NCBI GenBank assembly: GCA_027330985.1
Contig: DAHVZI010000002.1
Location: 139,162-203,161 of the forward strand
DNA from: Candidatus Uhrbacteria bacterium
GTDB taxonomy: Bacteria > Patescibacteriota > Patescibacteriia > 2-12-FULL-60-25
Direction of reading: 5' to 3'
DNA: 64,000 nucleotides
Position numbers and translations under genes: made by a program. This document shows, piece by piece, positions 7,072 to 39,840 of this stretch (position 1 is the stretch's first letter; every line of letters starts with the position of its first letter). The notes under the pieces are model-generated. The model was not told the DNA's origin. It made no database searches and saw nothing but the letters and a program-made list of their open reading frames with translations.

Positions 7072-8058
7072 ATGCCAGCACAAAAAATCAGTTTGCCGCA
7101 GGACGAGGGAATTCAGAAGGATCCGATCGAATGGTGGTATTGGAGTGGTCATGCCAAAGGTATGGACGGTAATACCTATTCCTTCATGTTGGCCTTGTTC
7201 AAGGTGCGACCGTTGCCCTACCGAAAAGTCCCCGCGGTCTGGTTCGTGCATTCTTTGGTGTCATGCATCGATACGGGAGAGTTCGAGCCGCATATCGAAT
7301 TCTTCCTGAAAGGATTGGATCGGGGCAGCTTCAGCGGCAAGCAATTCAAGGCGAGCGTCAAGGAAAGGCTGAAGGTCGGTAAAAAAGGCGAGGGCAACTA
7401 CCATATCCAGACGCCGCGCATGGAGTTCGATCTGCACGCATTGAAACCGGTGATGTTGGTGGGTGGGACGGGAAACGTGGATCTGAAAAGCTCAACCACG
7501 ACTTATTATTCTTGGCCGCGGATGTCGGCTAAAGGCAGGTTACGGTTGAAGGGAAGCGTCCCGTGGGTAGAAGCCGAGGGCATGGTCTGGATGGACCATC
7601 AATGGAGCCCGATTTCGTTGCACGGCGAACACGTGTGGCGTTGGTTCTGTTTCCAGCTGGACGATGGGACCGACGCGATGTGTTTCGAATATGGACGCAA
7701 GAAGCGCGCAGCCATGGTGACCTTATCCGATGGCCACGGCGGCACGACCTTCAGCCACAAGGTGGATATCATACCTTTGGGCGAGAGCTGGATCAGCCCC
7801 ACGACAGGGGCGGCCTATCCTTTGGAATGGAAGATCACTGCGCCGGAGTTGGATTTCGAAGTGACATGCCGAGCTCGGGTAAAAGAACAGGAGATGCTGT
7901 TCGGTCTGATGAACTATTGGGAGGGGCCTTTGGCCGCTGAAGCTATGCTTAACGGTAAAAAAACCGAAGGCTCGGGTTTCATGGAACTGGTCGGGTTTCC
8001 GAGGCGTCGATCATTGCCTGCGGTAGCCATGGAAGGTTTGAAGAGATTGTTCAAGTGA
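7072..8058 (+). CDS. AttH/CrtC-like (hydroxyneurosporene synthase family, lipocalin-like) protein
   Basis: The IEWWYWSGH motif is characteristic of the CrtC/AttH N-terminal domain. 328 aa. Confidence 0.5.
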   Translation: MPAQKISLPQDEGIQKDPIEWWYWSGHAKGMDGNTYSFMLALFKVRPLPYRKVPAVWFVHSLVSCIDTGEFEPHIEFFLKGLDRGSFSGKQFKASVKERLKVGKKGEGNYHIQTPRMEFDLHALKPVMLVGGTGNVDLKSSTTTYYSWPRMSAKGRLRLKGSVPWVEAEGMVWMDHQWSPISLHGEHVWRWFCFQLDDGTDAMCFEYGRKKRAAMVTLSDGHGGTTFSHKVDIIPLGESWISPTTGAAYPLEWKITAPELDFEVTCRARVKEQEMLFGLMNYWEGPLAAEAMLNGKKTEGSGFMELVGFPRRRSLPAVAMEGLKRLFK

Positions 8059-29524: not shown

Positions 29525-31690
29525 ATGTCGGTTTTCGTATTACAGGATGGCGGTGTGCCGGTTTCACGCCGTATAGATTATTCCCGTGAATTGAACCAGG
29601 AACAGCTGGATGTGGTGCTGAACGGCGATGGGCCGTGTTTGGTGTTGGCTGGAGCCGGGTCGGGCAAGACACGCACCGTGACGTATCGCGTGGCCTATCT
29701 TCTGGAGCAGGGCGTAGATCCGCAATCCATCATGCTCCTGACCTTCACCAACAAGGCTGCGCGCGAGATGATGCAGCGCGTCGAATCCCTCCTTGGTCAG
29801 ACGGCGCGCGGCGTGTGGGGCGGGACGTTCCATTCGACGGCGAACCGCATCCTGCGATCGGGGCATGCCCTGTCAGATTATGGACGCAACTTCACGATCC
29901 TGGACCAGGAAGATTCGCAGAGCCTAATCAAGGCTGTGATGAAGGAACTGAAGATCGATCCGAAAGCGCGCAGGTTCCCGACCGCTGCGGTGCTGCAGAA
30001 TGTAGTATCTTTCGCGCGTAACACGCTGCAGAGCGTGGGGAGCGCCTTGGAATTGAAGCACGAGAATTTTTTGCCGCTCCTGTCCGATATCGAAGCCGTG
30101 GCCGAAATCTATGCGCGGCGCAAACGTGAGGCGAACGTGATGGATTTCGACGATCTGCTCGCCAATTGGCTCGGCCTGCTGAACCATCCCGATATCGGTC
30201 CGGCGATCGCCGGTCGGTTCAAGTATGTCCTGGTCGATGAGTATCAGGACACGAATGCGATCCAGGCGGCGATCATCCGACAATTAGGTGGGGTGCATGG
30301 GAATGTACTCGTCGTCGGTGATGATGCGCAGTCTATCTACGCCTTTCGCGGCGCGGATGTGAAGAACATCCTGGATTTCCCGAACGAGTGGCCGAAGGCG
30401 AAGATCTTCAAGCTGTTGACGAACTACCGCAGCGCGCCGGAGATACTCGAGCTCGCCAACGAATCTCTGCAGCACAACACCAAGCAGTTCCAAAAGGATC
30501 TGCGGGCCGTACGAGGGGCGGGCGTCAAACCGAACATGGTCGCCGTCGCTTCGGCCAGTCAGGAAGCGCGTTATGTCGCGGAACAGATCCTGTCTTTGCG
30601 TGCGCAAGGCACGGCTCTCGGCAACATGGCCGTACTCTTCCGTTCGTCGGCGCATTCGCAGGCGTTGGAATTCGAATTGATGAAACGCGACGTGCCGTAT
30701 GAATACCGCGGCGGCATGAAGTTCTTCGAGCGCGCCCACATCAAAGATGCGTTGTCGCATCTGAGGGTCATCCATAACGTACATGATGAAGTCGCTTGGT
30801 TGCGCATCCTGAATCTGCAGACGGGGATCGGCGCAGCGACGGCCGGAACTTTGGTCAACCGTATCCGGGGCATGGAAAGCATCGAGATGGTCTTGGATAA
30901 GGCGGGACAGGAATTGCCGTCACGCGCGACACAGGGATTCCAAGTCTTGGTCGAGATGGAGCGCGACATGCTGGCGCAAGCGCCGGCTCCGGCTTTCATG
31001 CTACGTACTTTCTTGCAGTCGCCATACCGCGATTATCTTGAGCGTGAATATCCTGATTGGCGTGATCGTTTCGAGGATCTGGAGCAATTGGTCGTGTTCG
31101 CCGAGAACTATCATGATCTTTCGTCTTTTTTGGCGGACATCGCATTGTACGATGAGGTGGCGGCGAAGCGTGAAGAGGCTGATGCTTCGGGGGAAAGCGA
31201 GAGGATAATCCTTTCCACCATACATCAAGCCAAAGGTCTTGAGTGGGATACGGTGTTCATCATCCATCTGGCGGATTCGTTCTTCCCGAACAAGCGGGCT
31301 ATGGGCGAAGAAGGGGGGATAGAGGAAGAACGGCGTCTGTTTTATGTCGCTGTGACACGTGCCAAGCAACGGTTGTTCTTGTGTTATCCAGTGACGGCGG
31401 GATATGACGCGCTCATGTTCAATCAGCCGTCGCTTTTTATTGAAGAGCTTTCGCCGCGCTTGATGGAGAGGATCGAAGTCAGGGAAGAGGGGGCGAGTCG
31501 TACCGCGTACCGCGCACCGCGTACGTCAGATGATTGGAGTTGGGATGAAGGTTACGAAGAACCATCGATCGAAATAGATAGGTACGGGAACAGGAATCAG
31601 GGTTCGGCGAGCAAGACGGTGTGGAAGTCGTCGACGAGTAATGACAAGAAGAAACCCTCGTCATTTTTGAGAGATGTGGATGAGCTTTAA
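29525..31690 (+). CDS. pcrA: UvrD/PcrA/Rep-family ATP-dependent DNA helicase
   Basis: Helicase motifs I (AGAGSGKT), Ia (TFTNKAAREM), II (VDEYQDTN), III, and QAKGLEWD. 721 aa. Confidence 0.85.
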   Translation: MSVFVLQDGGVPVSRRIDYSRELNQEQLDVVLNGDGPCLVLAGAGSGKTRTVTYRVAYLLEQGVDPQSIMLLTFTNKAAREMMQRVESLLGQTARGVWGGTFHSTANRILRSGHALSDYGRNFTILDQEDSQSLIKAVMKELKIDPKARRFPTAAVLQNVVSFARNTLQSVGSALELKHENFLPLLSDIEAVAEIYARRKREANVMDFDDLLANWLGLLNHPDIGPAIAGRFKYVLVDEYQDTNAIQAAIIRQLGGVHGNVLVVGDDAQSIYAFRGADVKNILDFPNEWPKAKIFKLLTNYRSAPEILELANESLQHNTKQFQKDLRAVRGAGVKPNMVAVASASQEARYVAEQILSLRAQGTALGNMAVLFRSSAHSQALEFELMKRDVPYEYRGGMKFFERAHIKDALSHLRVIHNVHDEVAWLRILNLQTGIGAATAGTLVNRIRGMESIEMVLDKAGQELPSRATQGFQVLVEMERDMLAQAPAPAFMLRTFLQSPYRDYLEREYPDWRDRFEDLEQLVVFAENYHDLSSFLADIALYDEVAAKREEADASGESERIILSTIHQAKGLEWDTVFIIHLADSFFPNKRAMGEEGGIEEERRLFYVAVTRAKQRLFLCYPVTAGYDALMFNQPSLFIEELSPRLMERIEVREEGASRTAYRAPRTSDDWSWDEGYEEPSIEIDRYGNRNQGSASKTVWKSSTSNDKKKPSSFLRDVDEL

Positions 31691-31751
31691 TGGCTTGACA
31701 AGACGGCTTGGATAATCTAGCTTGCGCTTGTACTTTCTGGAGGAATTCGTC

Positions 31752-32789
31752 ATGCGCAAACTATCGTTCAAGCGGTTCGCCGGGATGATGAGTGAAGAAG
31801 TGGTGCAGGTCCTGCGTCTGGAGCAGGAGATGTTTCATCAAAGCTACTCCACTGATTTCATGAAGTGGTTCAAGCAGCACGGCGCAAAGCTCTCGACGGA
31901 GTGGCTGCGCTACTGCGCGGACAACGACGTCAAGAACTGCAACCGGTTCCATGTCTTGATGGCTTACGCCGAGAGGACAGGGGACCGCGAGAAGCTGTTC
32001 CGCTACCTCGTGCGCACGAATTGGCTCTCGGCTCTGCGCAAGCATTTCTCGGAACGGCTCACTCCGCAGCTGCTCCGCAGCATCGCTGAACGCAACTGGG
32101 CACAGTTGCGCAAGGAGCCGAACGGTGTGAAGTACTCCATAGATGCCTACGAGGCGTACCAGCTGCTGGGCGACGAAGAGGCTGCCGCGGCCGTTCGGGC
32201 ATTCGTCGTCAACCGTGGTCAATGTTCATTCTTCGGACTGCTGCCCAGCCTGCATCTCGACGAGGCAGAACGCGAGATTCTTGTCAGCGTCGTGCTGAAG
32301 AGCGGGAGACACGAGGGCTTGGTCGAGCGCTGCGTGAAGGATCACCACATGGTGCGGTTCTATCGGGCTTACCTCGAAGCCAAGGCGTCCACTTACGGAT
32401 ATCGGGTGTGGCTCGAGGAGGGCCCTGAACTGGGGATCACACCCACGGTCAAGCACCTCTTGGCTTTGGCGCAAAAACAGCACGACATAGACGACGAGAT
32501 CAAGATCTATCGGGTGCTGGCACAGCGCAACCCCAAGTACCAAACAAAGGTTCGGGCATTGTGGCTGGAGAAACGGGAGCACTACCTTGGTCGTCTCGAT
32601 GTCGAGCGGGCGATGGAAGCGGCAACCGAAGCCGGTCAGCCGCTGACGCCGGAGGAACTGCTCGCAGCCAGCCATACTTCCAACGACGAAGAAGCCCAGA
32701 AGGCGCTCAACCTCGCGGCCAAGCTCATCGTCGCGCAACTCGGCGACAAGCCGAGCAAACGCGCGCGTAAGCTCACGGCAGCAGCGTGA
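31752..32789 (+). CDS. hypothetical helical protein, paralog A (GC-rich cassette)
   Basis: ATG at 31752 with GGAGG SD. Paralogous to 33307-34365 (KHFSERLTPQLLRSIAERNW vs KYFPEQVTPKLLRSFARHWL; AGQPLTPEEL vs CGQPLTWNEL; Lys/Ala-rich C-terminal tails). Confidence 0.6.
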   Translation: MRKLSFKRFAGMMSEEVVQVLRLEQEMFHQSYSTDFMKWFKQHGAKLSTEWLRYCADNDVKNCNRFHVLMAYAERTGDREKLFRYLVRTNWLSALRKHFSERLTPQLLRSIAERNWAQLRKEPNGVKYSIDAYEAYQLLGDEEAAAAVRAFVVNRGQCSFFGLLPSLHLDEAEREILVSVVLKSGRHEGLVERCVKDHHMVRFYRAYLEAKASTYGYRVWLEEGPELGITPTVKHLLALAQKQHDIDDEIKIYRVLAQRNPKYQTKVRALWLEKREHYLGRLDVERAMEAATEAGQPLTPEELLAASHTSNDEEAQKALNLAAKLIVAQLGDKPSKRARKLTAAA

Positions 32790-32803
32790 CGCTCCAACCA
32801 AAG

Positions 32804-32845
32804 ACAGCGGTTCGTGGAAACTCCACGGACCGCTTTTCCGTTTGT
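32804..32845 (+). terminator. rho-independent terminator
   Basis: CAGCGGTTCGTGG-AAACT-CCACGGACCGCTTTTCCGTTT. The tail is almost identical to that of the terminator at 34412. Confidence 0.6.
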
Positions 32846-32914
32846 GAGGTTTTTTGACTTTCCGTATAACATGAAATAGGCTTGAGTCGTTCCTTTCAGT
32901 CGAAGGAGGATGTT

Positions 32915-33286
32915 ATGCCGATTACATGCGCTGAGTGTCAGACGGAGCTCTCCATGGGTTTCAACTTTTTCGTGGCCCACCAGGTCATGTTGACCGGGGA
33001 AGTCGCGGAGCTGCCTGACCCTGAAGACAAGACGCGGACAGCGAACGCTTTCGTCTGTCCTGGTTGTCTGGCCAAGGTGCCGGATCACGCCAAGCACGTC
33101 GAGGCGAAGCGCGCCAGACAGCCGCATTGGCACTCGATCATCGCGATTGCGCCTGTCGATACGGCCAAATGCGACTATTCGGCGTTCGGCAAGGCGCCGG
33201 TCACCGGAGAATACACGTTCGTCAAACTCGGCGTGTTCAAGCGACGGCTGCCCAAAGCCATGCTGGAGATCACGAAGAACTTCTAG
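32915..33286 (+). CDS. zinc-ribbon-containing small protein
   Basis: ATG at 32915 with AAGGAGGA SD. CAEC...CPGC zinc ribbon, then an ~80-aa C-terminal domain. No recognised family. Confidence 0.55.
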   Translation: MPITCAECQTELSMGFNFFVAHQVMLTGEVAELPDPEDKTRTANAFVCPGCLAKVPDHAKHVEAKRARQPHWHSIIAIAPVDTAKCDYSAFGKAPVTGEYTFVKLGVFKRRLPKAMLEITKNF

Positions 33287-33306
33287 AGGCGAGGGAGGAT
33301 AAGACG

Positions 33307-34365
33307 ATGGAAACTGAAGTGGGTCGGTTCAGCGGGATGGATCAGAGCCAGATCAAGCAGATGCTTGTGCTGATGAACGGAGTGGTGTTCGGCCACTTCA
33401 AGGATTACGACGAATTCGTAGCGTTCATCGAGCGAGGGGGGCTGACGTTCTTGCCGCGAGACATCCTGGCCTGTGCCCGGCAACGCGAGAAAACCTTCGT
33501 CACGACCTACGCCTACCGGTACTACGGTGCGCAGACCGGGGACATGGGGCTGTTTTTCGACTACCTGGTGCGGCATCATCACCTCGAGACGATCAAGAAG
33601 TATTTTCCGGAGCAAGTGACGCCCAAACTTCTGCGCTCTTTCGCGCGTCATTGGCTTGCGCGGGCGAAAGAGGAGCACAATAAGTGGCCGCTCTATACCG
33701 CCTACGAAGTCTTGTGCGAGGTGCACGACAAGCCGGCGATGGCTCGTGTCCGCAAGCTGGCGATCGAGTTTGGGGATGTCAAGTTCTTTTCGCACTATCG
33801 GATCGTTCTGCGGCAGGAGGAAGGAGAAGCACTTGTCCGGTCGTGTTTCCGTGTGGGCATACCTGATCCTGACGATCTGGCCATATTCCTGATGGTGAAC
33901 GGCTTGAAGCGGCACTACCGCCTTTTCCTGAACGAGGTCTCACGGAAACAAGGTTTCGGTCAGTGCATGCACTTTAGCAGGAAACTGCATGTCAGGCCGA
34001 GTAGCAGACTCCTAGCCGCTATGCTGGACGACTCTTTGACGAAGAGGGACGGCTACGACGCCTTCGGGATCTGCGAAGAACTCCATCGACGGAACCCGCG
34101 CAAGTGGCAAGGCAAGCTGCGCGAGTTGGCGGCCGAGGATAGAGGCAAATGGCTCAAGCTTGGAGAGCCGGAGGAAGCGTACAAGATGGCCGTAATCTGC
34201 GGCCAACCGCTGACCTGGAACGAGCTCGTGGACATCTACTCCAGGTTCGAAAAGGACGACCGGCCGGTCATGCGTGAGAAGGCGGAGCAGGCGCTCGATA
34301 TGGCGGCTGCGCTCATCGCCCGTCAGACAGGAGCTCCTGGGCCCAAGAAAGCGAAGGCGGCGTGA
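33307..34365 (+). CDS. hypothetical helical protein, paralog B (GC-rich cassette)
   Basis: ATG at 33307 with GGGAGG SD. Paralogous to 31752-32789. The upstream part of track ORF 33064.. overlaps the zinc-ribbon gene and is discarded. Confidence 0.6.
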   Translation: METEVGRFSGMDQSQIKQMLVLMNGVVFGHFKDYDEFVAFIERGGLTFLPRDILACARQREKTFVTTYAYRYYGAQTGDMGLFFDYLVRHHHLETIKKYFPEQVTPKLLRSFARHWLARAKEEHNKWPLYTAYEVLCEVHDKPAMARVRKLAIEFGDVKFFSHYRIVLRQEEGEALVRSCFRVGIPDPDDLAIFLMVNGLKRHYRLFLNEVSRKQGFGQCMHFSRKLHVRPSSRLLAAMLDDSLTKRDGYDAFGICEELHRRNPRKWQGKLRELAAEDRGKWLKLGEPEEAYKMAVICGQPLTWNELVDIYSRFEKDDRPVMREKAEQALDMAAALIARQTGAPGPKKAKAA

Positions 34366-34411: not shown

Positions 34412-34446
34412 GCGACTCGTGGCTCAACGGGTCGCTTTTCCGTTTC
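34412..34446 (+). terminator. rho-independent terminator
   Basis: GCGACTCG-TGGCTCAA-CGGGTCGCTTTTCCGTTTC. Confidence 0.55.
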
Positions 34447-34483
34447 AGATGACTTGAGGTTCTATTTGGCATACAATCTCCAC

Positions 34484-35056
34484 ATGATTTATTTCCTTTG
34501 GTTTGTCCTGATCGCATTGATCGTATCGACGACGACATCGCTCGCGTTGATCCTGAATGAGACGTGGCGCATCACGATCAGGCGCGGCGTGCCGGCGGTG
34601 TCATCTTCTTGGCCGGTGGTGGATAAGGTCATTAAAGCACAAGTTTTTCCTCGTGAAGGCCTTATCTTGGATTTGGGTTGTGGTACGGGTTGGGCGTTGC
34701 GGAGGATTTGGCGTGCGGGATACAACGGACCGTTCATCGGATATGAGACGGCGTTGTTGCCGTATCTTGTCGGTAGATCCTGGAACTGGATCACGCGCGC
34801 GCCGGTGAAGATCGTGAGGCAGGATTTTTCCGCAGCGCCGTTCGAGAAGGCGAAGGGAATATATCTTTTCCTTTTGCCGCGGATGCTGCCGGAAGTCGGC
34901 AAGATGATCACAACAAAATCTCGCATCGGTACAGTCGTGGTTTCGGCGGAGTTCGCGATCCCGGGATGGGAAGCGGAGAAGGTACTGGAAGCCAGAGGTG
35001 TGACCGCACGGCAAGCGAAAATCCATGTTTACCGCGTGAAAGCCCAGGAATCTTGA
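34484..35056 (+). CDS. class I SAM-dependent methyltransferase with N-terminal TM helix
   Basis: SAM-binding motif I (ILDLGCGTGW). ATG at 34484 lies downstream of the terminator, so the longer track ORF from 34274 is rejected. Confidence 0.6.
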   Translation: MIYFLWFVLIALIVSTTTSLALILNETWRITIRRGVPAVSSSWPVVDKVIKAQVFPREGLILDLGCGTGWALRRIWRAGYNGPFIGYETALLPYLVGRSWNWITRAPVKIVRQDFSAAPFEKAKGIYLFLLPRMLPEVGKMITTKSRIGTVVVSAEFAIPGWEAEKVLEARGVTARQAKIHVYRVKAQES

Positions 35057-35088
35057 GTTTTTACGGGTAAAATGGTAAAGAATCAAGC

Positions 35089-36075
35089 ATGAGATCAGCC
35101 AGGACAAGGCTTCCCGGGCATCCGGATAAGGCGTGTGATTTGGTCGTCGAAGCGATAGTGGACGAATATCTGCGTCGTGATCCGGAGTCGCGATTGAGCA
35201 TCAACGCCATCGGTGGGCGTGGTGCTATTTTTGTTTGTGGTGACGTGAAGAGTGATGCGGATTTCGACGTCACCTCGATCGTGAGACAGACTTTGGGCAA
35301 GGCCGGGGTGATCCAGGAATTCGAGCCCTTCATCGCCATCGAGCAGGTCGCGCCGGAACAAAGGGAGCAGATGACTACGGGTCCGGCCGAAAGCGTCACC
35401 GTAGTGGGATATGCAACGCAGGATACGGTCGATATGTTGCCGCGACCGGTTTCGTTGTCGCGCGTGATCGCCAAGCGCCTGTACGATCTGAGGACGGGCG
35501 ATGAGACGTGGTTTTGGCTAGGTGCGGATGGCGAGGTCGCGGTACATGAGGAGGGTAATGACGTCTATGTACGTCTTTTGATAGAACACGGAAGCCACGA
35601 CTTGAGCTTGGCGAGGAATAAATTGACGGAAGTCGTACGCGCTCTGGCGCCGGAGGCGAAGATAAAGATCAATCCGCTCGGCCCGAACGAAGTGCGTGGG
35701 TTGCATAATGTGTCCGGAGCATCAGGCAAAGACATGTCGGCGTATGGTCCGATGTTGCCGGCGGTGCGCGGAGGGATCGGATATGATTTGCGTCATCCGG
35801 AAAAATCCGGCGCTTGGTTGGCTCGTGCAGCGGCGCGAAAGCTGGTGGCCCAAGGCGCGAAGTCGGCCATGGTGCAGCTGGTCTACGAAGCCGGTGACTC
35901 GTTCCCGTCGCATATCACGGCGCGCGACGAGAAAGGCAACGACCTTTCGTCGTCTTTGGATAAAGAGGAACTATCGATCAAGCGCGTACTCTCCGATTGG
36001 CAGAGACCGGGCCTGAATTCAGAGGCGGCTCTGTGGGGATTCGCCGGTCAAGCTGGGTTGCCTTGGGAAGAATAG
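35089..36075 (+). CDS. divergent, shortened S-adenosylmethionine synthetase (MetK)-like protein
   Basis: GHPDK signature at the N-terminus. The YATQDTVDMLPRPVSLSRVIAKRL..WFWLGADGEV segment aligns to the MetK central domain. GASGKD...SGAWLARAAARKLVAQG aligns to MetK [23 protein letters not shown]. The GAGDQG loop is missing. 328 aa against about 384. Confidence 0.55.
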   Translation: MRSARTRLPGHPDKACDLVVEAIVDEYLRRDPESRLSINAIGGRGAIFVCGDVKSDADFDVTSIVRQTLGKAGVIQEFEPFIAIEQVAPEQREQMTTGPAESVTVVGYATQDTVDMLPRPVSLSRVIAKRLYDLRTGDETWFWLGADGEVAVHEEGNDVYVRLLIEHGSHDLSLARNKLTEVVRALAPEAKIKINPLGPNEVRGLHNVSGASGKDMSAYGPMLPAVRGGIGYDLRHPEKSGAWLARAAARKLVAQGAKSAMVQLVYEAGDSFPSHITARDEKGNDLSSSLDKEELSIKRVLSDWQRPGLNSEAALWGFAGQAGLPWEE

Positions 36076-36100: not shown

Positions 36101-36877
36101 ATGAAAAATAATTGGTTAGCCTATACATCCATTTCTGTCTTATTATTGTTCGGCGCCGGATGCTCCAATGATAATCCGACTGCATTGGACAGACCGTTGC
36201 AGGCCGGAGGAACGGATCAGAGCCAAAACGGGTTGGTCGAACCTCCGCCGAGTCCGCCTCAAGAACAAACTAATAGCGAAGAACAAAATATGTCACAAGC
36301 CAATCCGAGCGATATAACCAATGCCGAAGAGAAAGCGGCTGAAACGACCAGCACGCAGCCTGAAGTCAAGGATGAGCCTTTAGCCTTCCCTGGAGTATTG
36401 CCGAGCGCAGAAATCACGAATAAACAGATCAGGGTCAAGACGTCCAAGGGCGATATCGTTTTCGAGTTGTTGCCCAAGGAAGGGCCGAATGCCGCGTCCA
36501 ATTTCGTCTATCTGGCCAAACGTAAATTCTACGACGGTCTGATGTTCCATCGTGTAGTGCCGCACTTCGTGATCCAGGGAGGCGATCCTTTGACGCGTTA
36601 TCCGCAGGATCCGTATCATCCGTACGGTTCAGGCGATCCCGGCTACAAATTCGCGGACGACAAAGTCACGCAATGGTATACGACGGGAACCGTGGCGATG
36701 GCCAATTCCGGCCCGAACACGAACGGTTCGCAGTTCTTCATCATGCTGGAGACGCCCAACTGGGACATGCCCAAAAGCTATTCGATCTTCGGACGTGTGA
36801 CCAAGGGCATGGATGTGGTCGGCAAGATCGCAGTCGGCGATAAGATAATATCCGTCACAGTGGAGCCGAAGAAGTGA
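36101..36877 (+). CDS. ppiB: cyclophilin-type peptidyl-prolyl cis-trans isomerase lipoprotein
   Basis: Lipobox (LLFGAGC). Cyclophilin core (FHRVVPHFVIQGGDP, GTVAMANSGPNTNGSQFFI). Confidence 0.85.
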   Translation: MKNNWLAYTSISVLLLFGAGCSNDNPTALDRPLQAGGTDQSQNGLVEPPPSPPQEQTNSEEQNMSQANPSDITNAEEKAAETTSTQPEVKDEPLAFPGVLPSAEITNKQIRVKTSKGDIVFELLPKEGPNAASNFVYLAKRKFYDGLMFHRVVPHFVIQGGDPLTRYPQDPYHPYGSGDPGYKFADDKVTQWYTTGTVAMANSGPNTNGSQFFIMLETPNWDMPKSYSIFGRVTKGMDVVGKIAVGDKIISVTVEPKK

Positions 36878-36909: not shown

Positions 36910-37164
36910 ATGAAGAAATCATCCATCATTTTGGTTTTGGGGCTTTTATTGGTCGCGGCGGGTTTTTTGGTATATTTCGCGTCACGTAGCGAAAATCAGC
37001 CGCAAGAGCAGGCGATGACCACGGAAAAGACGGAAGAAGCCACGCAAGCTACGGGCACGGAGGCGCCTTATGGCGACTACTCTTTGGTCGAAGGCGGGGT
37101 AGCCACGTCGGAACATTTCATGCTCGAATCGACTCCGCAGAACGCTAAGAAAAACGACAAATGA
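36910..37164 (+). CDS. small membrane-anchored hypothetical protein
   Basis: 84 aa. N-terminal TM helix and an acidic, Thr/Glu-rich tail. Confidence 0.4.
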   Translation: MKKSSIILVLGLLLVAAGFLVYFASRSENQPQEQAMTTEKTEEATQATGTEAPYGDYSLVEGGVATSEHFMLESTPQNAKKNDK

Positions 37165-38312
37165 TTATGCAAAAGGTGAATAAATTAGTCCTAGCCGTGA
37201 TCGGTCTGATAGGTTTAGCCGTGCTTTTGGCTTTGTTCGTCGTTTGGCGGAACCAGCTGATGTCGCCATCGAATCAAGCGAAAGAGCCGATGACGCAAAA
37301 AGTCGAGGAGACAGCTACGCAACAAGACAAAAAAGCAGAGGGGACCGGAGTCGAGGCTTTAAGTGCAGAGACGTGCAGGGCACAAGGCGGGACGTGGAAT
37401 GACTGCGGAAGTCTGTGCAGGGGCAAACCAGCCGGGACGGTATGTGCACAGATCTGTGTCCCACAGTGTGAGTGCAGGAGCCAGGACCAATGTCAGAGCG
37501 GGTATGCATGTACTGAATTTTTGAGTGATGGTGTGGGGATCTGTACGGCGAAACAGAGCGGAGAAGAAACCTCTGCTGCTAATCCGGACGAATGGGTAAA
37601 TAAGGAATACAGAAGTTCGGACGGTGTGACCAGCGTCGTGTTGCCGGAAGAGGCGCTCTTCAATCCATTCACCTTCTACGGCACTTCGACGGCTTTCGAG
37701 AATATGATCTCGTGGACAGTCGTACAGTCAGATGACCTGGAGGTGGCTCGCGGAAACGCATATGTTAACAGCCCTGATATCGGGATACCGGGATCTTTCA
37801 AAGTAAAAGGTTATTACGAAAGATTGCCTACGGCCGCTTCCGGTACGTTGAATGTCTTCGAAGCTTCGGCGAAAGACGGCACGCCGATCCATGCAGTCGT
37901 CATCCCGGTGAACCTGATGGTGATGGAAAAATCAAACACCAGGACGCTGCAACTGTATTTCGGCAACAGCAAGAAGAACCCTGACATGTTGGATTGCGGA
38001 AAAGTCTATCCCGTCAAACGAGTCGTGCCGGATGATGAGTATGAGCCCGAAGTGCTGATGCATTATCTTTTGGCTGGTCCGACGGAAGAGGAGAAGAAGG
38101 CGGGATATTTCACTAGCCTTCCTGAATACATCTCGGATCCCGAAGTGTCGGGCGATGAGCTGAAATTCAAGGAAGATCTCGAGGCAGGAGTCGCCGGATC
38201 CTGCAGGGTAAGCGCCATCAGGGCGCAGATCATCGAGACGTGGAAGAACGAATATAAAACCGATCCAGTCATCTCCATCGACGGCAGGACCGAAGATATA
38301 TTGCAACCGTGA
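37161..38312 (+). CDS. membrane-anchored Cys-rich protein with Gmad2/GerMN-like domains
   Basis: TM helix, 12-Cys module (CRAQGGTWNDCGSLC...CECRSQDQCQSGYAC), Ig-like region, and a C-terminal region resembling GerMN (PVNLMVMEKSNTRTLQLYFGN). Confidence 0.45.
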   Translation: MIMQKVNKLVLAVIGLIGLAVLLALFVVWRNQLMSPSNQAKEPMTQKVEETATQQDKKAEGTGVEALSAETCRAQGGTWNDCGSLCRGKPAGTVCAQICVPQCECRSQDQCQSGYACTEFLSDGVGICTAKQSGEETSAANPDEWVNKEYRSSDGVTSVVLPEEALFNPFTFYGTSTAFENMISWTVVQSDDLEVARGNAYVNSPDIGIPGSFKVKGYYERLPTAASGTLNVFEASAKDGTPIHAVVIPVNLMVMEKSNTRTLQLYFGNSKKNPDMLDCGKVYPVKRVVPDDEYEPEVLMHYLLAGPTEEEKKAGYFTSLPEYISDPEVSGDELKFKEDLEAGVAGSCRVSAIRAQIIETWKNEYKTDPVISIDGRTEDILQP

Positions 38313-38737
38313 ATATGCTTTTTCTAGGAGCGGCATCAGGGGTAATAGCGGCATCGATCATGCTGCTTTTCTCCCATCTGGCGCCGTTCTTCGGAGCCGG
38401 GAATTTCGTCCGTGATCTGGACGAACCCAGGGTCTTCGGGAAAGAGATATCGTACCGTGAGGCGCATTATCTCGGCGTATTGCTGCATGTCATGTTCTGC
38501 TTGGTCTCCGGCGGGCTGTTCGGCGCTTTCTTCGACGCCGGTCTGATCAGCGGGGTAGGGCTCTTGAGTGTCATGGGTTGGAGCCTTGTTGCGTTCTTAT
38601 TCTATGGTGGTGTGTTGATGCCGCTCGAAGGGCACGGCGTCTTCGGCGTCAAAGAGGATGCATGGTTTCCGGTCGATCTGTTCTTGACGAACGTGCTTTG
38701 GGGAGTATTGTTCTGGTGGATCATAAATTTGTGGTGA
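38309..38737 (+). CDS. hypothetical integral membrane protein
   Basis: 142 aa with four predicted TM segments. Confidence 0.45.
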   Translation: MNMLFLGAASGVIAASIMLLFSHLAPFFGAGNFVRDLDEPRVFGKEISYREAHYLGVLLHVMFCLVSGGLFGAFFDAGLISGVGLLSVMGWSLVAFLFYGGVLMPLEGHGVFGVKEDAWFPVDLFLTNVLWGVLFWWIINLW

Positions 38738-39840
38738 AAAAACATCTGCTTTTGGCCTTGTTCATGGTCTCGGGTCTGATGCTGGGGACGGTTTTGATGT
38801 TGTTGCCTTTGGTCGGTTTCACCCGAGCCGATACTTTGCCGCGGCAGATGGCCGAAATACCACAGGTAGTGACGCCGGTGTTGACGTTTTTCCATACTTT
38901 GCCGCAAGCCGCGGAGGCCGAACGCGGCATCCATGATGTTTCTCTGCTTTTCGTCGGCGACATGATGTTCGATCGTACAGTTGCGACCAGGATGAAGAAC
39001 GCCGGCTCGAGCTATTATCCTTTCGGTAAGATATCAGGATTCCGCGACGGGACATTCGGGCATGTGGACTTGCTCGTCGGCAACCTGGAAGGGCCGGTGA
39101 CCGGGAAAAAAGCAGCGCCGCTTAAAAGCATCGACTTCAGTTTCGATCCGTTCATGGCTAAAGTACTTAAAGATGAGGGTTTCGATGCCGTGTCTCAAGC
39201 GAACAACCACACCTTGGATCAAGGGCGTAATGGAGCGGATGAATCGCGCAAGACGCTGCAAGAGAACGGATTGAGCGTCTTCGGTGATGAAGTCAGGGAC
39301 GATGCGGAGGATTCCTTGACCATATTGCAGGCCAACGGCAGGAAGATCGCGCTCGTCGGATTCAACATCACCGATAACGCCCTGGACAAGGATGCGGCGC
39401 GCGCATCAATCGACCAGGCCCTGATCAAGGCGGATAAGACAGTGGTATTCATACATTGGGGCAACGAGTACAAGGATAAACCGAACGCGGATCAAATCGC
39501 GTTGGCGCATTGGTTCATCGATCTGGGTGCCGATGCGGTGATCGGCGGTCATCCGCACTGGATGCAGGGTATCGAATCATACGACGGAAAACCGATCGTC
39601 TATTCCCTGGGTAATTTCATCTTCGATCAGGATTGGTCGGAAGAGACAGGCTATGGGCTATCCGTCGTCCTGAATTTCGGCGACAAACGAAGCTCGTTGG
39701 ACCTTTATCCGATTCACATTGAGGCGAGTCAGCCGACGGTGCTCACCGGGGCTGTACGAGATGTGAGGCTGGAGAAGCTGGCGCAGATCTCAGATGCCGC
39801 GCTGCAGGACGGGATCAAGAGCGGGACTCTGGAATTCTGA
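38731..39840 (+). CDS. CapA/PGA_cap family metallophosphatase-like protein
   Basis: GTG start overlapping the upstream stop. TM helix, then the CapA core (LLFVGDMMFDR, GNLEGP, ANNHTLDQG, IHWGNEY, IGGHPHWMQG, SLGNFIFDQ). Confidence 0.7.
   Translation: MVKKHLLLALFMVSGLMLGTVLMLLPLVGFTRADTLPRQMAEIPQVVTPVLTFFHTLPQAAEAERGIHDVSLLFVGDMMFDRTVATRMKNAGSSYYPFGKISGFRDGTFGHVDLLVGNLEGPVTGKKAAPLKSIDFSFDPFMAKVLKDEGFDAVSQANNHTLDQGRNGADESRKTLQENGLSVFGDEVRDDAEDSLTILQANGRKIALVGFNITDNALDKDAARASIDQALIKADKTVVFIHWGNEYKDKPNADQIALAHWFIDLGADAVIGGHPHWMQGIESYDGKPIVYSLGNFIFDQDWSEETGYGLSVVLNFGDKRSSLDLYPIHIEASQPTVLTGAVRDVRLEKLAQISDAALQDGIKSGTLEF

Follow-up and report, generated by a model that had tools for sequence, protein, structure and literature searches.

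To our knowledge, methionine adenosyltransferase (MAT; EC 2.5.1.6, encoded by metK) is among the most conserved of enzymes, with an active site whose residues are virtually unchanged from bacteria to humans. Work in the Markham laboratory on mutants of E. coli MetK is said to have shown that single changes at D16, D118, D238 or D271 cost orders of magnitude in kcat, and that single changes at K165, K245, K265 or K269 do likewise. Here we analyze a MetK-like gene at positions 35089-36075, on the plus strand, of a 64,000-nucleotide stretch of a Candidatus Uhrbacteria contig (DAHVZI010000002.1; the whole stretch is hereafter the window). It encodes a conserved MAT-fold protein that probably no longer makes S-adenosylmethionine (SAM) and that appears to descend in place from an ancestral metK; for this protein we infer a binding role.

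In E. coli MAT, H14 is the catalytic acid, F230 stacks against the adenine, and D163 and D238 are ribose ligands; at the methionine site, D238 and E55 bind the amino group while Q98 and K269 bind the carboxylate (PMC3853416). Archaeal MATs, at ~20% identity, still have the catalytic histidine, the aromatic stacker and both ribose aspartates (PMC3853416). MAT active sites span a large interface between the two subunits of a dimer, which is the unit required for function (PMC9202080).

A second point of comparison is provided by dead paralogues that regulate SAM-pathway enzymes, such as the trypanosomatid AdoMetDC 'prozyme' (PMC6221367). Like the MetK-like protein, it is a homologue of a SAM-pathway enzyme, stripped of catalytic residues and yet retained by selection; its active counterpart would correspond to the canonical MAT seen in the closest relative of the window organism. 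In both cases the active site of the parent enzyme is built across a dimer interface. The two differ in fold and in parent enzyme, and for the MetK-like protein an interaction with, or activation of, a partner is hypothetical. They also differ in descent: here the apparently dead copy seems to occupy the ancestral locus, and the active MAT would come from another lineage.

Fold and active site of the MetK-like protein

The gene and the three motifs discussed below are located as follows:

35089-36075, plus strand: MetK-like, apparently catalytically degenerate MAT-fold protein of 328 aa, identified from the open reading frame (ORF), Pfam and TIGRFAM scores, AlphaFold, Foldseek, the residue table and the dN/dS ratio
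35116-35130, plus strand: GHPDK motif (residues 10-14, corresponding to E. coli H14, D16 and K17), retained in the window protein
35380-35397, plus strand: GPAESV (residues 98-103) at the GAGDQG position, with E101 for D118 and S102 for Q119
35779-35817, plus strand: GYDLRHPEKSGAW (residues 231-243), the altered C-terminal segment, with Y232 for K265, H236 for K269 and E238 for D271

The MetK-like ORF scores above the Pfam cut-offs for S-AdoMet_synt_N (57.3 bits) and S-AdoMet_synt_M (31.1 bits) and under that for S-AdoMet_synt_C (19.5 bits; cut-off, 25); against TIGR01034, the metK equivalog model, it reaches 89.8 bits, far under the cut-off of 309.4. MATs in the PDB match the protein by sequence with E = 7e-24 to 4e-10. 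An AlphaFold model computed from 78 family members has a predicted local distance difference test score (pLDDT) of 96.1 and a predicted template modeling score (pTM) of 0.93, and the best PDB matches to this model in Foldseek are exclusively MATs (TM 0.79-0.86, 22-25% identity, E = 4e-28). These sequence and structure matches are far beyond chance, and in the predicted structure the protein has the full three-domain MAT architecture. PHROG phrog_1569, a 346-position profile of unknown function, also matches the protein (E = 1e-26), so that a MAT-homologous protein family occurs in phages as well.

A sequence-only reading of this DNA had described a shortened MetK homologue of 328 aa that carries GHPDK, the central-domain motif and a MetK-like C-terminal segment, and in which the GAGDQG loop was not evident. 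This description holds. GHPDK occupies residues 10-14, the central domain exceeds its Pfam cut-off, and GPAESV stands where GAGDQG would be. The C-terminal segment is there in altered form, its Pfam domain under the cut-off: residues 231-253 read GYDLRHPEKSGAWLARAAARKLV, which replaces a canonical stretch of 23 residues, and the canonical GKD...AAYAARY segment is recognizable yet changed. The 'HP' replacement at the GYDLRHPEKSGAW site recurs in P0139 and P0145, two of the intermediate forms described below.

As to 'shortened', the length of 328 aa is correct, but it is mostly a trait of the lineage. Canonical Patescibacteria MATs, which are 57-80% identical among themselves, are already only 345-350 aa long, leaving the window protein ~22 aa shorter; alignment with these proteins and with the intermediates shows that the shortening is common to canonical MATs of the Candidate Phyla Radiation. 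We dropped a deletion of the gating loop, which had come from alignment with E. coli MetK alone, because bridging sequences show the loop to be present and unconserved.

Active-site positions were compared in an alignment of 118 family members, E. coli MetK, three intermediates and 63 canonical Patescibacteria MATs. All 63 canonical proteins have H14, D16, K17, E42, E55, Q98, D118, Q119, K165, D238, R244, K245, K265, D266, K269 and D271, and 62 of them have F230. By contrast, E42, Q98, Q119, K165, F230, K245 and K269 are kept in none of the 118 family members, D118, K265 and D271 in two, and D238 in nine. The K165 position is glutamate in 90/118, a reversal of charge, and the G233 position is arginine in 92/118. 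Among the triphosphate, metal and K+ ligand positions, the window protein has E149 (for K165), K214 (R244), D215 (K245) and N39 (E42); among those for adenine, methionine and ribose, it has N200 (F230), V208 (D238), V87 (Q98) and D52 (E55). Unlike MetK, the window protein thus lacks E42, Q98, D118 and Q119 (of GAGDQG), K165, F230, D238, K245, K265, K269 and D271.

Aligned in the same way, every canonical match shows the full set of residues, even MATs of 317-360 aa, and so neither shortness nor alignment error explains the loss of residues. By this alignment the MetK-like protein has lost most of its ligands for the triphosphate, Mg2+/K+, the adenine ring and methionine. Because most of them are lost together, canonical MAT chemistry would not be expected of the window protein. 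The sequence-only reading had proposed alignment to E. coli MetK as a check, and the finding that the ATP, metal and methionine ligands are largely absent counts against a working enzyme.

Three proteins of 347-353 aa (P0139, P0145 and P0149) are partly degenerate and lie at the base of the clade that lacks the catalytic residues. They keep K265, F230 and K165 (as K or R) and have already lost D238, K269 (H or Q) and D271. These shared early losses suggest that the active site decayed stepwise, and the three intermediates could mark the order in which its residues were lost.

Homologues of the MetK-like protein number at least 150 in Patescibacteria/Uhrbacteria; they are intact, ~323-335 aa long and 39-89% identical. 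A protein identical to that of the window is encoded on JAJYXM010000016.1 (1.52 Mb), from the metagenome-assembled genome (MAG) FK3.bin42, and on several Logan and NCBI contigs, and the related loci are titled 'Candidatus Uhrbacteria' or 'Patescibacteria group'. In a profile search of 1.84 billion cluster representatives, 103 matched at E <= 1e-30; the ~35 best-scoring full-length sequences among these have a degenerate or intermediate active site, whereas those that follow are canonical MATs. Between the window and an 89%-identical relative, the ratio of nonsynonymous to synonymous substitution rates (dN/dS) is 0.051 for the MetK-like gene, 0.032 for UvrD and 0.058 for the neighboring peptidyl-prolyl isomerase, ratios to be read qualitatively because dS is ~1.2 and near saturation. 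The MetK-like gene is under strong purifying selection. It also evolves faster than its canonical counterparts, identity being 39-57% within the family versus 57-80% among canonical Patescibacteria MATs.

Databases name the protein 'S-adenosylmethionine synthetase N-terminal domain-containing protein' or hypothetical (NCBI), or 'S-adenosylmethionine synthetase' (JGI); as a label of function, the latter is probably wrong. Our literature searches for a MAT pseudoenzyme or a Patescibacteria MetK paralogue found no description of either.

A probable ancestral metK locus and a second MAT lineage

Two neighbors anchor the position of the MetK-like gene:

29525-31690, plus strand: UvrD/PcrA-type helicase, the upstream synteny anchor, found upstream of the MetK-like gene in 22/23 related loci
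36101-36877, plus strand: cyclophilin-type peptidyl-prolyl isomerase (Pro_isomerase, 130.6 bits), the downstream anchor, found downstream in nearly all loci

Across 23 species-level loci the order is UvrD, a variable slot of 0-4 kb, the MetK-like gene, cyclophilin, a Gmad2-domain protein, a 142-aa protein and PGA_cap. In the window, the protein with Gmad2 and Germane domains, which are named for spore germination, is encoded at 37161-38312 and the capsule-synthesis-like PGA_cap protein at 38716-39840; both lie in conserved synteny downstream of cyclophilin across the clade. The intermediate P0149 (347 aa; L039, 6001-7044), from another Uhrbacteria MAG, has the order UvrD ... MetK-like ... cyclophilin ... 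XseA/XseB ... amino-acid kinase.

Two types of canonical Patescibacteria MAT can be distinguished, of 345 and 349 aa. A hidden Markov model (HMM) of the MetK-like family scores the 345-aa type at 220-257 bits and the 349-aa type at ~176 bits. All three of the 345-type loci that we inspected have parts of the UvrD/cyclophilin synteny: P0355 lies directly downstream of UvrD, P0397 is the fourth gene after UvrD (UvrD, three genes, MAT), and P0378 has cyclophilin immediately downstream. A metagenome scan with over-general patterns returned ~20 Patescibacteria-type loci among 80, nearly all of the 349-aa type, and was uninformative about linkage to UvrD.

A neighbor-joining tree is consistent with this affinity. 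The degenerate and intermediate sequences together are monophyletic in 100/100 bootstraps. In a second run, this combined clade is sister to P0378 in 179/200 bootstraps, the common ancestor of that clade and P0378 excludes the 349-type core in 194/200, and the common ancestor of the clade with P0423, a canonical MAT of the 349-aa type, always takes in 345-type sequences. Beyond this nested position and the place between UvrD and cyclophilin, the MetK-like protein has in common with bacterial MetK (TIGR01034; PF00438, PF02772, PF02773), and especially with the 345-type P0378 and P0355, the same fold, the GHPD motif, GYAT, NP.G and a C-terminal PWE.

Synteny and the neighbor-joining tree together indicate that the ancestral metK locus is the one now occupied by the putatively dead copy, and that the enzyme residing with it belongs to the other MAT lineage. 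Given this ancestral position, the MetK-like gene is not a recent duplicate.

The sequence-only reading had asked whether a canonical metK lies elsewhere in the genome, and on a contig of the closest relative one does. JAVHLR010000001.1 carries an 89%-identical MetK-like gene within 961,773-982,756 and, ~105 kb away at 1,077,063-1,078,115, the canonical P0423 (350 aa, with all three Pfam domains), which is 49% identical to E. coli MetK and 30% identical to the MetK-like protein. That the window organism has a canonical metK of its own is a strong inference from this relative. By tblastn there is no second MAT in the 64-kb window or in the 23 related loci of 20 kb each. In a search for the organism's own canonical metK, no protein among those retrieved came nearer than 74% to P0423, and four further canonical MATs were traced to assemblies that all lie outside the locus set. 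Rfam models detected neither a SAM riboswitch nor any other RNA family in the window, and it has no tRNAs.

The upstream methyltransferase and the variable slot

Upstream of the MetK-like gene, between UvrD and position 35089, the window has the following features:

31722-34365, plus strand: strain-variable insert from UvrD to the methyltransferase, encoding two paralogous ~350-aa proteins and a 123-aa Cys-pair protein
34419-34435, then 34449-34477, plus strand: terminator-like hairpin and then a promoter-like site, both upstream of the methyltransferase start and both from a consensus scan only
34484-35056, plus strand: aKMT-like class I SAM methyltransferase of 190 aa with an N-terminal hydrophobic helix, identified from motif I, a PDB match and orthologue starts

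The sequence-only reading had recognized the last of these as a membrane-anchored class I SAM methyltransferase, and both motif I (ILDLGCGTG) and the N-terminal hydrophobic segment (MIYFLWFVLIALIVSTTTSLALIL) were found. Its start at 34484 is also preferable to the gene caller's 34388, because orthologues start with MIYLLW or MIFLWLL and because the terminator-like and promoter-like sites lie just upstream. In the gap from the methyltransferase stop at 35056 to the start of the MetK-like gene at 35089, the consensus scan found no terminator-like site. The protein falls short of the curated cut-offs for Methyltransf_25 (18.6 bits; cut-off, 27) and NF041081 (29.3 versus 200). Its best solved relatives are structures of the crenarchaeal lysine methyltransferase aKMT (5fa8 and 5jwj; E = 1.7e-5, residues 68-203); it has in common with aKMT the small class I core and motif I, over ~135 residues, and differs in its added N-terminal hydrophobic helix and in its low NF041081 score.

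This methyltransferase adjoins the MetK-like gene in only 4 of 22 species, that of the window among them (L005, L006, L007 and L015). The slot is empty in nine loci, where UvrD abuts the MetK-like gene, and holds other genes in three. Seven loci have in the slot an unrelated protein of 476-484 aa (L008, 8515-9969; L009, 7514-8953; L010; L012; L013; L016; L017), with an N-terminal domain resembling Methyltransf_25 and spermine synthase and a C-terminal GNAT-like (Acetyltransf_6) region; these proteins are 41-59% identical across genomes, with one pair (L010 and L013) at 91%. No similarity beyond motif I is detectable between the two slot methyltransferases, which rules out a single ancestral methyltransferase gene as the filling of the slot. 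Weak 'mad2' matches of both were set aside as generic methyltransferase-domain similarity. A 185-aa aKMT-like homologue (24% identity, E = 1e-13) is encoded 1.4 kb downstream of the canonical 349-type MAT P0388 in L030 (8426-8983), a locus of another Patescibacteria genome, and also occurs in L029.

The sequence-only reading had also seen a SAM producer beside a SAM consumer. This pairing fails on the producer side, where the catalytic residues are lost, and the specific pair occurs in just the four species named. Class I methyltransferases that recur beside MAT-fold genes are suggestive of a weak functional link, although they represent only about two independent events.

Farther upstream, the region 31685-34340 differs sharply from its counterpart in L005 (7749-9252), though the flanks are 98.5% identical; an additional segment of 1.17 kb in the window codes for a 355-aa protein, and in place of the 354-aa gene at 33301-34365 FK3.bin42 has an allele only ~38% identical. 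The two ~350-aa insert proteins are paralogues (29-30% identical) that flank the 123-aa CxxC...CxxC protein, and a homologue lies in the L016 slot. Pfam, PADLOC and PHROG gave no match for any insert protein. This variable stretch has the look of a hypervariable cassette.

The window as a whole is ~54% G+C. Every 2-kb bin of 1-64000 has a positive GC skew, and the cumulative skew rises monotonically; with genes almost entirely on the plus strand, including nearly all long ORFs, this places the whole window on one replichore with a strong gene-strand bias. At 7072-8058 it encodes a hydroxyneurosporene-synthase-like protein (CrtC N-terminal lipocalin and Lipocalin_9 domains), an uncommon annotation in Patescibacteria; the length of this protein, 328 aa, equals that of the MetK-like protein by coincidence only.

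Possible functions of a MAT without its active site

The sequence-only reading had left a choice between a minimal functional MAT and a degenerate copy. Its catalytic site does appear to have degenerated, and the protein seems to be neither a minimal enzyme nor a decaying copy. We consider it likely, from the alignments and the synteny, that this is a conserved MAT-fold protein that has ceased to make SAM and descends in place from the ancestral metK. An ancestral metK of the 345-aa type, linked to uvrD and cyclophilin, would have lost catalysis once a MAT of the 349-aa type supplied SAM, and the gene at the old locus would have been kept for another role. The dead MAT would then act through binding and not catalysis, perhaps as a homodimeric or MAT-heterodimerizing regulatory or scaffold subunit, like the 'prozymes' of other SAM-pathway enzymes. 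If it can still dimerize, such a subunit could regulate or poison its canonical partner, or serve as a scaffold, and there may be a link to the methyltransferases that recur in the adjacent slot. Because MAT active sites need both subunits, a dimerizing regulatory or scaffold subunit would be the simplest role.

A non-catalytic binding or regulatory role is our best guess. The binding, regulatory or scaffold mechanism, taken alone, is tentative and may well be wrong. More doubtful still is its most specific form, in which the dead MAT would gate SAM synthesis through the dimer interface of the canonical MAT or would donate a ligand to the neighboring methyltransferases.

Several observations count against the loss of SAM synthesis, or against parts of the history and mechanism proposed with it. 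Of the GHPDK residues, H14 is retained in 102/118 family members (86%) and D16 in 115/118 (97%), with K17 in only 29/118; D266 is retained in 101/118 (86%), E55 as aspartate or glutamate in 108/118 (92%), and R244 in 79/118 with lysine in a further 14 (R/K, 79%). The window protein and the family consensus both have the equivalent of D163 (D147). These residues leave room for a remodeled ligand site, or even residual chemistry, and the residue mapping itself consists of sequence alignments. The canonical metK was seen in the closest relative, the window organism's genome having been covered across 64 kb only. The tree is a neighbor-joining tree in which the degenerate clade is long-branched; since long-branch attraction would draw that clade towards the outgroup, its nested placement is conservative. 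For the proposed mechanism, the physical partner is conjectural.

The retained residues can also be read as those of a neofunctionalized enzyme or ligand-binding protein, with a pocket rebuilt, for example, for an adenosyl compound, that may serve the adjacent methyltransferases. In keeping with such a pocket, the window protein or its family retains H14, D16, D163, E55 (as D), R244 and D266, and has family-specific residues at the former active site, glutamate for K165 (E149 in the window protein) and arginine for G233 (R203). In 11/22 loci the gene is directly preceded by a class I methyltransferase from one of two unrelated families, and the aKMT-like homologue in L030 lies close to a canonical MAT. 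However, a conserved new polar cluster is not evident, most invariant residues being structural ones common to canonical MATs; the stacker F230 and the ligand D238 are unconserved, which argues against adenosyl binding; and the nine loci in which UvrD abuts the gene have no methyltransferase neighbor. We regard this explanation, although it is the chief rival, as unlikely.

Much less probable is a minimal functional MAT of a reduced genome. It would account for the intact MAT fold, GHPDK and purifying selection, and archaeal MATs diverge greatly yet stay active (PMC3853416); those enzymes, however, keep the histidine, the stacker and both aspartates, whereas this family lacks F230 and D238 and also K165, K245, K265, K269 and D271. 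True minimal MATs of Patescibacteria (345-350 aa) keep every such residue, the nearest relative also has a canonical MAT, and the TIGR01034 score is 89.8 against 309.4 bits. We give hardly any credence to a decaying duplicate or pseudogene, for which the lost catalytic residues and the lower identity within the family (39-57%, versus 57-80% in canonical MATs) might speak. A dN/dS of 0.051, an ORF that is intact and uniform in length across at least 150 homologues and a very confident fold argue decisively against pseudogene decay. The position of the gene is also conserved across the clade, and as the ancestral-locus copy it would not be a new duplicate.

A whole clade that keeps the MAT fold under strong selection without the active site would be a natural experiment on the other uses of this scaffold. 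Because some pipelines name the family 'S-adenosylmethionine synthetase', reconstructions of Patescibacteria metabolism may attribute SAM synthesis to the wrong gene. Redundant genes are usually lost from very small genomes, and in such genomes the history of the locus would be a clear and testable case of functional displacement, in which the ancestral copy is dead and a second MAT lineage does the work. If the protein does act as a regulator or ligand donor, it would be the first MAT-fold pseudoenzyme, an ancestral gene of core metabolism retained for a new role.

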